DNA from: Podarcis liolepis
Taxonomy: Eukaryota
Reading direction: 5' to 3' (one strand)
Length of the DNA: 64,000 nucleotides
NCBI GenBank assembly: GCA_965112155.1
Contig: OZ218104.1
Part shown: piece by piece, positions 7,720 to 36,655 of the stretch
How positions within the stretch are numbered: the stretch's first letter is position 1
Layout: every line of letters begins with the position of its first letter
The notes under the pieces: generated by a model
Database searches by the model: none
Told to the model about the DNA's origin: nothing
The model's input: only the letters and a program-made list of their open reading frames with translations
Made by a program: the position numbers and the translations under genes

Positions 7720-8104
7720 AGTTTTCAATGCATGTATATGGGTAGTGCCAGGAGACTAATTCACATTTGTAAATACCAGAAATCAAGAGGATGGAAGCTA
7801 TTCCATATACTGTAAACTAATAGAGTGTGTGTGTGTGCGCGCGCGTGCACGTGTGCGCGCGTGTGCTCTCCTTTACTCTTATCTTCTACAGGCCAGTTTT
7901 TCAGACCTCCTCTTGAGTCACAGTAGATAGCACAGGCATTCTTCAGAGTGGAGTGAGAGTGTGCAGGAACCACCTGCCTCAATGCTAGATCCAAAAGGAG
8001 GAAAGTTTTCAATGCATGTATATGGGTAGTGCCAGGAGACTAATGCACATTTGTAAGTACCAGAAATCAAGAGGATGGAAGATATTCCATATACTGTAAA
8101 TTAA

Positions 8105-8154
<50 letters not shown>

Positions 8155-8307
8155 CCGTGCACGTGCTCTCCTTTACTCTTATCTTCTACAGGCCAGTTTT
8201 TCAGACCTCCTCACAACCCTTGAGTCACAGTAGATAGCACAGACATTCTTTGGAGTGGGGTGAGAGTGTGCAGGAACCACCTGCCTCAATGCTAGATCCA
8301 AAAGGAG
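7720..8307. repeat. Head-to-tail tandem duplication (7720-8003 and 8004-8307)
   Basis: Both units begin agttttcaatgcatgtatatgggtagtgccaggagactaat and end cctcaatgctagatccaaaaggag. Confidence 0.95.
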
Positions 8308-23420: not shown

Positions 23421-24226
23421 CAGAGTTTTCCAAACTGTGTGTAGTGACATGTTAGTGTGTCAGCTGCGGTGTGTAGGTGTGTCGCGCGAACACTCCCCGC
23501 ACTCCTCTCGGAGCTGGAAAGGGGTTAGTTTTGTGGGATGTAAACACAGGAGCAGTCAATGACAACATTCCTAGAGTGTACATGTTAGAACATGGGGAGG
23601 GATGTCTGTCCAGCAAGCGGGTAAACTTCCTGGGGACGGACTTCCTCCGCATGTGACCAGAGGTGGGTGTGGCCTCACCTGTGCAGGTAATGACAAAAGC
23701 ACAGGGCAGGCAACCATCTCTCTCTCTCTGCCATTTTCCTTCGATGAGGAAGCATCTAAAGATGCCCTCTTGGCTCTCAGCCAAGAGAGGAGATAAGGTC
23801 TATCTTGCAACAAGATAGATTCTAAGTATTTGTAACTTTTTAAGCCTGTCTGCCTTCTGGGATCATGTTGTGAACAGAACGTGAGTAAACTCTTTTATAC
23901 TTTTATAAAGACTGTGTTGTGTCTTGTATTTTAAGAGGGAACAAAGGGGAAATTACCAGGGTAATTATTATAGAGGTTCTAGCGAACCTGTGCACACGTT
24001 ACCGTTGCGAACTTAAAGGGGAAAGTTTGTAAACTCTGCTGATATTTTGGGAACTTGTTAGCACAAGTTGGATAAGGATATAATTAGTCAATATATCCTC
24101 TCCTGCACCCCAGAACATTCCCACAAGTTTAACCTCCAAGTTTGCTAGTAAAACTGAATTGCTGTGTCGCAAAATGATGCATGTCTAAAAAGTGTGTCAC
24201 CAACATGAAAAGTTTGGAAAGCTCTG
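23421..24226. mobile_element. hAT MITE (about 207 bp when empty) interrupted by a solo LTR
   Basis: TIRs CAGAGTTTTCCAAACT / AGTTTGGAAAGCTCTG (15/16); perfect 8-bp TSD GGCCAGAT (23413-23420, 24227-24234). Confidence 0.93.
23532..24125 (+). mobile_element. Solo LTR, 594 bp (Gypsy- or ERV-type)
   Basis: Termini TGTGGGATGT...ACATTCCCACA (TG...CA, inverted); 5-bp TSD AGTTT (23527-23531, 24126-24130); TATA-like GACAAAAG near 23692 and poly(A)-signal variant AGTAAA at 23884 suggest plus orientation. Confidence 0.9.
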
Positions 24227-31916: not shown

Positions 31917-33493
31917 GCTGCTGAGTTCCTGGAACAAACTCTTTCTTTGGAGAAGCACCTTCCCTCCTTATTCCCCAAGCTTTATAAAAATAGAAAGAAC
32001 ACATGTTCCCATTAGTCATTTGCTTGAGGGGAGCTTTGGGGTATGTGCTGACAGTCTGTACATGGAGGCCTAATTTGAATACTATTTGCATATTGCAGGT
32101 AGACAAAGTGCCACTGTCTTAACAACACTCACAGGCAGGCAGGCAGGAGGAGGTGGAGCTGAACAAAGCAGTGTGAGGAAGACCCCCCATGACCCCCCCT
32201 GGCAAGCAACCAAGTCAAATCCCAAGCAGCAGCTCCCTCCACCCACTCACCAGCACACCCCCCCGGCAAGCAATGCCCAACGCGGCCGCCGTATTCAGAG
32301 AGGCTTTTAATTAAATGCTCGCTTGCCAAGAGTGGTTTGTAGATGCCTAACAGAGGACACGGCTTCCCTCCAGGGAACGTTGCAGGCAGACACGGTCCCC
32401 CTCCCTTGATAACACCATTTGCAAGTCCTGAATGAGGAAGAGGAGGGGGCGAAATTTTCTGGAGGATACAAGCCAGTTGGTACTGCCTGACGCTCCTACC
32501 CCAGGCCAGAGATTTGAAAGTGTCCTGAAAGCCCCCTTCCAGAAGCCCCCTGCCCCTGGCATCCTTTGATCTCATCCAGCTGAATAGCCTCTGCCTTGGA
32601 CATAACCTTGGGGAGTTCAAAGGTTACGTTTGAAGGATGCAATCAGTGTCCGTGCGAGACAGGACAAGAATGTGAGTGGGGTGGGGGCGGGAGGGCTCCT
32701 ACAGGTGCCTCCATTATCGATGGACCACTTTGCATTACAGGATGTGAAATGCTGTTCATGTCCCCAGTGCCTTTGATCTGACCTGACCTCTGCAACCCCG
32801 TCAGGCCCAGCGGTCAGTAGTTATCAGCTGTCAATAGGCAGCGGAAAACGTTCCTCATTCTGACCTGATCAGCTGTTATTACTACAACTCCTATAGATCA
32901 ACTAATCAGCTGCAAACCATCAGCCTCAGATTTTGTGACTTAGCCTCAAGAGAGTGTCCGGTGCTGATTCACCTCTAGTTCCAAAATATGCAAGAAAACA
33001 GAGAGGCGGCTTGCAGCCTCACTCCAAGGATGTAGGCCACTTATACACCAACAATAAAAAAGAGAGGATGATAGATAATTTGCACATGATGATTTTTATA
33101 TATAGATGCAAATTCATAAATAATTGCTAGACGTCAAAAGAAATACATATATGTCACCACCGTGGGGAAGAAGGCTGTGGTCAGGGGCCCTGTGTGACTG
33201 CTCAGCCTATTGTCCAGGAGCTGCTCACTACTGCTGGCTGGAAACTTCCAGCCCTTACCCCTTTTCTGCTCTCCTTTCTTGTGACTCTTTATCTTTAAAC
33301 CAGGCTTGGACTGGGCACTCCATCAAAAAGAGAACTATCCTCTGCAAAGTCGGAGAGCTGCTCCCCCAACCGTCACTAGGCTTGCTTGGAAGTCAGCCCC
33401 AAAATTCCAGTGGAATTCACTTCCAGGGATGCAATCAAGCATAGTGACACCAAAAGGAGGGAGATGGATACTGAACTTCAGCTTCCTCTAAAC

Positions 33494-33629
33494 CAGGGTT
33501 TCCCAAACTTGGCCCTCCAGCTGTTTTTGGACTACAATTCCCATCCTTCCTGACCACTGGTCCTGCTAGCTAGGGATGATAGGAGTTGTAGTCCCAAAGC
33601 AGCTGGAGACCCCAGTCTGGGAAACCCTG
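33494..33629. mobile_element. Palindromic hAT MITE, 136 bp
   Basis: TIRs CAGGGTTTCCCAAACT / AGTCTGGGAAACCCTG; perfect 8-bp TSD CTCTAAAC (33486-33493, 33630-33637); internal arms ctccagctg..ggactacaa / ttgtagtcc..cagctggag. Confidence 0.95.
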
Positions 33630-34454
33630 CTCTAAACCTTCATATTAACCAGCTTGCCTCGGCAAAAAGCACAGTACCTTGGGGTCAGAAATGGTTTTAC
33701 TGAGACAACTAGCAGGCTTCATGACACTTCTGTGCCAGTCCAATGATGATGCTCTGGAAACACTTTTGGTTTCAATGGTGGCAGAGTTGGCAACGAGTGG
33801 TGTAAGAGCTTTGGAGTGGAAGGACACAAAGTTCAGAGAGGAAGGAGGCTGTTGCTTTTGACACTTCCTAGTGGGATTTGTGGTTGGGCCTGGAGCAACA
33901 AGTGCCGTGGAAGGTGAAGGCCGGGAAGACCTTCCAGCACAGCCAGAGAGAAAAAGAGTCTTGGAAGAGGGTTTGGGATGCTGAGAGGCTCCAGACAGAA
34001 AGACAGAATGCAGATGGCTGCATTCAGAAAAGAATTAATGAGTAGGTGTCTTCTACGGCTGTGATAATTACCAATTTTCTGTATTTATGAAAATGTCATA
34101 AATATTGAAGTGTGGCACTATTATCTCTATAGATACTGATTTAGCATGAATATGGAAATTTGTTAATTATCGCTAAAGCTGTTCATTAAATTCTGAAAGT
34201 TTTTTTTAATAAAAAAAAGCAAATAAGTATGTCATTTACTCATTGCTTCATTGCTTCAAACCAGACATTTCCATATTGACCTGCTTTGTTTGTTTGTTCC
34301 TTTCATGATGCAGGTAGAAGAGATTCACTCCAAATAAAAGGTTTTCTCTTGCTGCACAAGCAGAATTATGCAGTTGCCCTGATCCAGCAAAGGAAACCCA
34401 TGCACAGAAATAGGACTTAGCGCTGTGTGTTCACAAGGAGAAGGACAGCTGAAA

Positions 34455-36168: not shown

Positions 36169-36655
36169 CAGCCCATCGCCGGGGGTGGAGGAAAGTGGTG
36201 GGGCCAGTCCGTCCTGGGTGTCATCAATGAGGGGGTGACATTGGCGCTCTGCCAGCCTGTGACTCCCAAGCCTACCCCGAGCCGTTGGGGGAAGGGGCAG
36301 AGCTGCGCTGCCTTGCCAGTGGCCTTCCCCCCTTCCCCCTTTGTTTTGACAGCTCAGGGGAGGCTTGGGAGTCGCACCGTTGACCCCTGCTCCCAGGCTG
36401 CTTCCTGGGGGGGGAGCCTCCCCTGAGCTGTCAAAAGGAAGAGGGAAGGGAGGAAGGCTGCTGGCAAAGCGGTGCGGCTCCCCACCCCACCCCGCCGCCA
36501 CCAGCCAGGAAGCAGCCCACCATGGGGGCGGCTCGCTCCACCCCCCAGGATGCTCGTTCTGTCCGGGGGGTTGCTTGCCCCGCCCCCATGGCCCCGCCCC
36601 TGGGTGCACAGCATGTGTGACGCTCTGGGTGCTAGAGCAACTAGCTCCACCTCTG
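36169..36655. mobile_element. GC-rich non-autonomous hAT-like element with internal inverted repeats
   Basis: Subterminal ctgggtgtcatcaatgagggggtgaca and right end ctgggtgctagagcaactagctccacctctg; sharp GC/CpG contrast with flanks; boundaries approximate, no TSD seen. Confidence 0.6.

Follow-up and report, generated by a model that had tools for sequence, protein, structure and literature searches.

The long terminal repeat (LTR) at positions 23532–24125 (+ strand) of the 64,000-nucleotide stretch of Podarcis liolepis DNA analysed here (the window) is a solo copy (U3-R-U5) from a young Ty1/Copia family, and its U5 carries two boxes complementary to the initiator tRNA, tRNAiMet, placed between covarying hairpins and in tRNA-complementary order. 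Box A (23995–24009, + strand) is complementary to tRNAiMet nucleotides 25–11, with 14 of 15 positions pairing, two of them as G-U, and box B (24033–24040, + strand) is a perfect complement of nucleotides 8–1. Judging from sequence comparisons, we propose that the two boxes and an imperfect primer-binding site probably form a three-part primer site for a half-tRNAiMet in a folded leader. Neither box appears in an earlier note made from the letters of the window (the sequence-only reading), which had described the LTR as an array of short perfect hairpins. The solo copy in the window lacks a primer-binding site and has no priming role of its own.

Solo LTR of a recently spread Ty1/Copia family

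The identification of 23532–24125 as a solo LTR in the sequence-only reading was borne out by TG...CA ends, a terminal inverted repeat of about 10 bp and a 5-bp target-site duplication on both sides (23527–23531 and 24126–24130, + strand). The LTR was also, as that reading supposed, a member of a multi-copy family, since the 40 copies scored among 1904 candidates in its own genome were each 97–100% identical. An exact 5-bp duplication flanked 23 of the 30 close copies fetched, four adjoined internal sequence, and three had imperfect or offset duplications. In complete copies the LTRs are about 4.3 kb apart; some copies carry stops or frameshifts, and gag was at least 91% identical in about 40 copies. 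Five LTR pairs were 99.7–100% identical, suggesting recent spread of the family. An LTR pair was sought for L040–L042 and none was found. Loci L032 and L033 hold three LTRs in a tandem array and have two internal regions in common with the same breaks, and at L065, L057 and L064 the LTRs of one subfamily are found within elements belonging to a different subfamily of their clade.

The family had been expected to be of the Gypsy/ERV kind and possibly to encode an accessory RNA-binding protein, and neither expectation held. A single 1358-codon open frame spans the internal region of the copy L031 (1844–5920) and stops 44 nt short of the 3′ LTR. Its domains follow the Copia order of gag, zinc knuckle, protease, integrase and reverse transcriptase (RT), with Pfam matches to Retrotran_gag_2 (33–195), zf-CCHC (224–239), Pol_BBD (282–368), rve (482–581) and RVT_2 (853–1097, E 2e-72). 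This order, in which the integrase does not follow RT-RNase H, ruled out Gypsy/ERV identity, and an env or accessory ORF sought in the internal region was not found, the one frame occupying all of it. RNase H gave no Pfam match and is presumably present, judging from sequence motifs. TG...CA LTRs, the 5-bp duplication and a polypurine tract agree with Ty1/Copia termini. The nearest named proteins were arachnid Copia polyproteins (47–49%), and the RT tree included no named copia sequence. Two-nucleotide spacers separate the LTR from the primer site (L031:1624–1625) and the polypurine tract from the LTR (L031:5963–5964); the other Copia families compared have none, and their presence in the clade of the window family suggests end-trimming by the integrase.

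Transcription was followed in four raw-read runs from two studies of a related organism. The start site had been presumed to lie directly ahead of the R hairpins, and tagged read ends of that organism mapped it to about 23724 (23722–23726, + strand), where the Smart-seq3 5′ tag at L031:1221 was carried by 209 and 183 reads in two single-cell runs. Both the tag identity and the strand-invasion artefact of the method have been described (PMC9546772). Tagged ends are also piled up at L031:1097 (153 and 165 reads), and others carrying a short tag lie near L031:5470; these may be such artefacts or a second start. Reads spanning the polypurine tract and the LTR numbered 263 and 322, and further reads of the related organism linked U5 to the leader across the primer site. 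A poly(A) tail was sought among loose read ends and none was seen, the single pile being one of 21 read ends at L031:1398.

Of the 74 long open frames in the window, 46 were scanned for host-gene context, and none of these had a Pfam match. Long imperfect inverted repeats at 33489–33634 and 36287–36493, with arms of 63 and 79 nt and about 80% complementarity, are probably small DNA transposons, and 7720–8307 holds a tandem duplication of about 290 bp with 86–96% identity.

Hairpins of the LTR and their covariation

The eight stems of at least 6 bp and the two 5-bp stems of the sequence-only reading were all recovered at the same positions, together with a ninth 6-bp stem at 23894–23909. Three had been drawn with 2-nt loops; these stems are real, but such loops cannot close, and the hairpins are one pair shorter with 4-nt loops. 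In 2000 dinucleotide shuffles, the nine observed stems of at least 6 bp compared with 1.09 expected (shuffle maximum 6), the five of at least 7 bp with 0.31 and the three of at least 8 bp with 0.08, in agreement with the rough chance estimates of about 1 and about 0.3 made earlier for the first two classes. The LTR folded with z-scores against shuffles of −5.28 (+ strand) and −5.19 (− strand), and the 400-nt flanks folded like shuffles (z −0.02 and +0.19). By region, the + strand gave z-scores of −5.2 in U3, −2.8 in R and −3.3 in U5.

The idea of an unusually structured R/U5 leader was upheld by comparison with other LTRs. Six LTRs of the window family had 6–9 stems against about 1.1 expected and z-scores from −4.0 to −8.0 (15 shuffles each). 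Of the other LTRs measured, 12 from other Copia families had 0–4 stems (z +0.6 to −2.1), 13 Gypsy-type repeats had 2–6 stems (z +2.5 to −2.6), and seven Copia-like LTRs without RT had 0–2 stems (z +0.3 to −3.6). The window family is thus the most structured among the LTRs compared, though by degree, since 12 of the 13 Gypsy-type LTRs also showed a mild excess (2–4 stems against 0.5–1.1 expected). BEL/Pao controls gave just three weak matches and were left out of the comparison. A search of Rfam with the LTR yielded four weak matches, all far under the gathering threshold, and no TAR- or psi-like family. Stem-loops are likewise conserved in the R/U5 regions of retroviruses (TAR, the poly(A) hairpin, and the R loops of MLV and HML; PMC2664473), whereas the window LTR has no sequence or Rfam match to them, belongs to Copia and accompanies no accessory ORF.

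Subfamilies and sister families, designated Y, M, P, O, S1 and S2, were found through gag matches and three LTR searches; Y copies are 89–100% and M copies about 80% identical to the window. Stems proved to be shared within the family, six of the eight listed being perfect among the 30 closest copies in 30 (23581), 25 (23767), 21 (23799), 28 (23974), 29 (24052) and 29 (24075) cases. Of the remaining two, the stem at 23752 was perfect in 10 of the 30 and the 7-bp form at 23951–23966 (+ strand) in three, with its 6-bp core in all 30. Across subfamilies, the stems at 23581, 23752 and 23951 are lost and are thus copy- or subfamily-specific; that at 23951 is not kept in M, and that at 23581–23594 (+ strand) is not kept beyond the youngest copies. 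The latter is also a U3 stem situated ahead of the start site, so that the placing of the stems in a structured leader stands for those of R and U5 and not for this one.

Two structures on the + strand were absent from the earlier list. A long imperfect stem in U3 (23590–23654) covaries, with two-sided changes at four basal pairs in 7–9 of 24 copies, and a stem at 23855–23879 directly before the poly(A) signal has one pair that is U-A in Y, M and P and A-U in S1 and S2. The predicted signal itself is AGTAAA at 23884–23889 (+ strand), followed by a GU-rich run. A putative degenerate TATA position at 23693–23699 (+ strand) aligns with TATAAAAG of the sister copy L102. R contains two short hairpins (23736–23765, + strand), the second of which is the stem at 23752. 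Two 9-bp hairpins of the + strand follow. That at 23767–23787 has a stem invariant in Y, M and P copies and a loop that varies, and that at 23799–23819 shows G-U wobbles in both M and P, the latter also having one double change. The pairs of the latter were counted in Y, M and P only, because the six-group alignment of R is out of register there; S1 and S2 have a different hairpin at a comparable position.

Covariation in U5 was assessed in 71 of about 100 copies from the six subfamilies, aligned without regard to structure. Two hairpins of the + strand with UAGC or UAAC loops, at 23974–23989 and 24052–24069, had two-sided changes at four of six and six of seven pairs, respectively, and RNAalifold recovered both unaided. 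A third (24075–24099, + strand) has a variable 9-nt loop and a 3′ arm within a 16-column invariant run; its register shifts in S1 and S2, and its pairing is lower (78%). Over the three stems, 87.5% of cells were paired, against 29–49% with slid partners, and 11 of 21 pairs had two-sided changes. Compensatory changes across subfamilies, which bear directly on the structured leader put forward in the sequence-only reading, are thus present, and they trace to few lineage splits and not to 71 independent events. Among the 52 group-by-pair states of the 23974 and 24052 hairpins, 46 were Watson-Crick, four were G-U on the sense strand, none was A-C and two were broken or gapped. Both loops switch between UAGC and UAAC and, scattered decay aside, show nothing else. 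The covariation together with the sense-strand wobbles points to a selected RNA structure.

Inverted repeats can also be perfected without selection by template switching, during reverse transcription or repair, so that the hairpins would be mutational by-products. The stems that are perfect in part of the family only (10 and three of 30) and the mild excess in Gypsy-type LTRs are in keeping with this explanation. Template switching, however, yields Watson-Crick symmetry; it accounts neither for G-U pairs confined to one strand nor for the constancy of the U-A-R-C loop. The other Copia families, whose enzyme is of like kind, have few stems and weak folding; we hold this origin to be very improbable.

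Alternatively, the stems could be palindromic DNA sites for transcription factors, with folding as a side effect. By their motifs, 23770–23784 is a candidate NFI site, 23581 and 24052 would be of p53 type and 23977 of STAT6 type, the p53-type spacing at 23581–23594 presumably fitting weakly. The near-equal folding of the two strands agrees with DNA sites, as does the invariant 9-bp stem at 23767, which we take to be a perfect NFI-type palindrome; for this single stem, which could equally be an RNA hairpin or an NFI site, the DNA reading may hold. At 24052, however, the sister families swap p53-type cores with all pairs kept, and in the M subfamily the STAT-type site at 23974 is disrupted and a U-G pair retained, changes that ruled out the p53- and STAT6-type readings of these two U5 hairpins. 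The absence of A-C wobbles beside four sense-strand G-U pairs and the position of the start site upstream of most stems also argue against DNA sites, which we consider quite improbable as an explanation of the array.

tRNAiMet complementarity in U5 and in other elements

The primer site of the family is complementary to the anticodon arm of tRNAiMet as encoded by the genome's own tRNA genes. It is perfect in L055 and bulged or mismatched in the other seven of eight variants, with constant ends and a variable middle. From this site, the primer is predicted to be the cleaved 5′ half of tRNAiMet. Box A is the top match to tRNAiMet anywhere in the LTR. Scored over the last 200 nt, the boxes gave p values of 0.001–0.009 in all 10 clade LTRs scored (1000 shuffles each), and the 3′ half of the tRNA, the antisense strand and six other tRNAs gave lower scores in all 10. 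The window's score of 39 was reached by 8 of 2492 genomic segments of 200 nt and by one of 1000 GC-matched ones. Median scores were 39 in Y and M, and 29.1 in S1 and 29.8 in S2, a level reached by 5% of genomic segments.

The two boxes differ in conservation. Box B is among four invariant runs in 190 columns; seven of its eight columns are identical in Y, M, S1 and S2, and the eighth has an A-to-G change that keeps pairing. The letters of box A are not conserved above neighbouring columns (3 of 15), and the box has three or four mismatches in M and P and is down to 7 nt in S1 and S2; its changes opposite a tRNA G are C/T exchanges that retain pairing.

Like boxes were found in a separate Copia clade of the RT tree with 8-nt primer sites (p<0.05 in four of five LTRs), and the box test was passed, as had been predicted beforehand, by all seven further Copia-like LTRs with short sites (p 0.004–0.036). 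Two families with perfect primer sites of 15–17 nt had no enrichment (p 0.46 and 0.64). Among four Gypsy-type control families, one passed (4 of 13 LTRs, p 0.002–0.015), and the shuffle p values are therefore too lenient. The LTRs of L268–L271, which are Gypsy-type, match tRNAiMet nucleotides 14–25 about 180 nt before their end, and this was treated as a false positive. A metagenome set comprised 120 loci, of which 80 had flanks and 74 of these enough upstream DNA. With the lizard-type tRNA as a stand-in, its elements with perfect sites showed no box enrichment (5 of 74, against 3 of 74 in the control); 30 of the 74 had a Copia protein match, and one of these 30 passed. Two metagenome loci, L157 and L175, carry a near-contiguous complement of tRNAiMet nucleotides 1–18/20 directly inside the LTR end (p 0.003 each, in 74 tests), and several others have a 7-nt match to nucleotides 19–25 at about −45.

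Since a hairpin array is absent from the second clade with boxes (z −0.2 to −1.1), hairpins and boxes do not necessarily belong to a single device. The U5 of the short-site clade (L043, L045, L046, L051, L053 and L275–L281) also contains a sense look-alike of tRNAiMet, 50–110 nt before the LTR end and downstream of the antisense boxes for the same tRNA, which reaches nucleotides 1–32 in L275. Its p values ranged from 0.002 to 0.038, being below 0.02 in 11 of 12 LTRs and 0.038 in the twelfth; the window family has no such look-alike (sense p 0.9). The boxes of the short-site clade could pair with the look-alike in the same U5, and the look-alike could act as a decoy or a lock, or as a place of hand-over on the newly made DNA strand. 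L275–L281 are high-copy Copia-like elements with about 2.9–3.1 kb between near-identical LTRs and a frame of about 930 codons; six of their seven internal regions have no RT match, and they are likely RT-less elements mobilised in trans.

These comparisons bear on the view that the hairpins are packaging, dimerisation or Gag signals and that the boxes are a decayed copy, made by RT, of the half-tRNA primer that no longer binds tRNA. The box order is what a read-through copy would yield, box A is eroded in S1 and S2 and is weakly conserved, and the look-alike of the other clade shows that tRNA sequence does enter such LTRs. A decayed copy, on the other hand, accords poorly with the invariance of box B, whose sole change keeps pairing, with its recurrence in a distant clade, with the pairing-keeping C/T exchanges in box A and with the company of short or imperfect primer sites in which boxes occur. 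We consider such an origin unlikely, and retain the three-part primer site as the preferred reading.

Proposed priming complex and known systems

Considering these results, we propose the following scenario for the three-part site. In genomic RNA, the boxes would pair with tRNAiMet nucleotides 1–8 and 11–25 and the primer-binding site with nucleotides 26–40, so that all stems of the tRNA 5′ half would be invaded and its 3′ half displaced. The U5 hairpins may fold away the intervening RNA and hold box B open; the U-A-R-C loops would be likely landing sites for the Gag zinc knuckle, which may anneal and package the complex, and the R hairpins would likely serve first-strand transfer and 3′-end control. 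Predicted duplex energies were −21.2 kcal/mol for box A, −11.3 for box B and −26.0 for the primer site, and that of the folded tRNA was −30.3. The predicted unpaired fractions in the free leader were 0.80 for box B, 0.41 for box A and 0.34 for the primer site, and the U5 hairpins were predicted to be stable in the folded leader. The proposed three-helix complex would have a pseudoknot-like topology. A candidate helix closing the tRNA junction, between sequence 5′ of box A and sequence 3′ of the primer site, was rejected, being seen by eye in Y only and showing no covariation.

Three helices crossing on a single RNA would presumably be avoided if the boxes bound the tRNA in trans, the half-tRNA bridging a genome dimer through the primer site of one molecule and the boxes of the other. 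A comparable role of tRNA in joining RNA ends has been proposed for Ty3, and tRNA-dependent dimerisation has been discussed for Ty elements (PMC4974528). The same source, however, reports dimerisation and packaging without the tRNA or the bipartite site, and the approximately 40 unpaired nucleotides from box B to the primer site are by our estimate enough for the cis form. Bridging of this kind appears highly improbable, and the cis arrangement of the three-part site is kept in what follows.

Half-tRNAs are known to serve as primers in copia and Ty5 and also in certain plant lineages (PMC10886601, PMC5371799, PMC6317226). Drosophila copia and Ty5, which are of the Hemivirus type, have in common with the window family the Copia domain order, the 5-bp duplication and a primer site for the tRNAiMet anticodon arm, but the site of the window family is imperfect and 2 nt off the LTR, and extra U5 boxes cover nucleotides 1–25. 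Boxes like A and B were not found for copia or Ty5 in the literature searched, primary papers lying outside the search. In Ty1, boxes 0, 1 and 2.1 are likewise short extra boxes for the tRNAiMet D arm that aid a short primer site (PMC4974528, PMC3592414), and both packaging of the primer and initiation depend on boxes that pair with its T and D arms (PMC4974528). Ty1, however, starts at the 3′ end of an entire tRNA, with its boxes 3′ of the site, in GAG, whereas those of the window family lie 5′ of the site, in U5, and cover the acceptor 5′ strand and the D arm, with a half-tRNA as the predicted primer. The tRNA 3′ half has no match in the window family, and the layout is thus not that of Ty1. 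Our best reading, by analogy, is that the three-part site would work like the multipartite primer site of Ty1 in a different layout.

The split 5′-3′ primer sites of Ty3 and Drosophila Gypsy also engage one tRNA through sites that lie apart (PMC5371799, PMC1635307). The second of these is found close to the RNA 3′ end, whereas in the window family a span of about 150 nt in the 5′ leader holds every part. Helenus and TRIMp3 likewise have tRNA-related sequence within the LTR (PMC10886601), but Helenus is non-autonomous and its sense tRNA copy is a Pol III promoter, whereas the window family is autonomous and its match is antisense to the primer. By description only, the family may be likened to squamate Copia elements, namely the corn-snake OCA2/CLCN2 insertion and Anolis Copia-6, which are recently active and 5–6 kb long (PMC4657000, PMC11948899), no LTR structure being given for them in the text searched. 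As far as the text of PMC3601003 goes, no LTR model converged for animal Copia. The literature searched, with Repbase, Dfam and supplements outside the search, contained no description of U5 boxes that bind a half-tRNA primer or of covariation in the leader of an animal Copia element.

How copia- and Ty5-type elements capture the initiator tRNA and come to start from its middle has long been asked, and there are few ways to approach it. The LTRs described here offer defined boxes for primer nucleotides 1–25 alongside primer sites that are imperfect or short, in a recently spread, transcribed vertebrate family, and a leader structure backed by covariation, which is rare for animal Copia. They may also offer a control point for 5′ tRNA fragments of the host, and many solo LTRs of the genome carry tRNAiMet-complementary RNA when transcribed. 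As a tentative and somewhat doubtful extension, the U5 of short-site vertebrate Copia elements in general might act as a tRNA-unzipping jig, in which boxes and primer site would strip the 5′ half of tRNAiMet from its 3′ half and so ready the tRNA for the internal cut that yields the half-primer, the U-A-R-C hairpins would recruit Gag, and the sense look-alike of the second clade would be a lock or hand-over site. The leader of the window family directly before the gag AUG (L031:1830–1910) consists of short AT-rich tandem repeats and is predicted to form a long hairpin.
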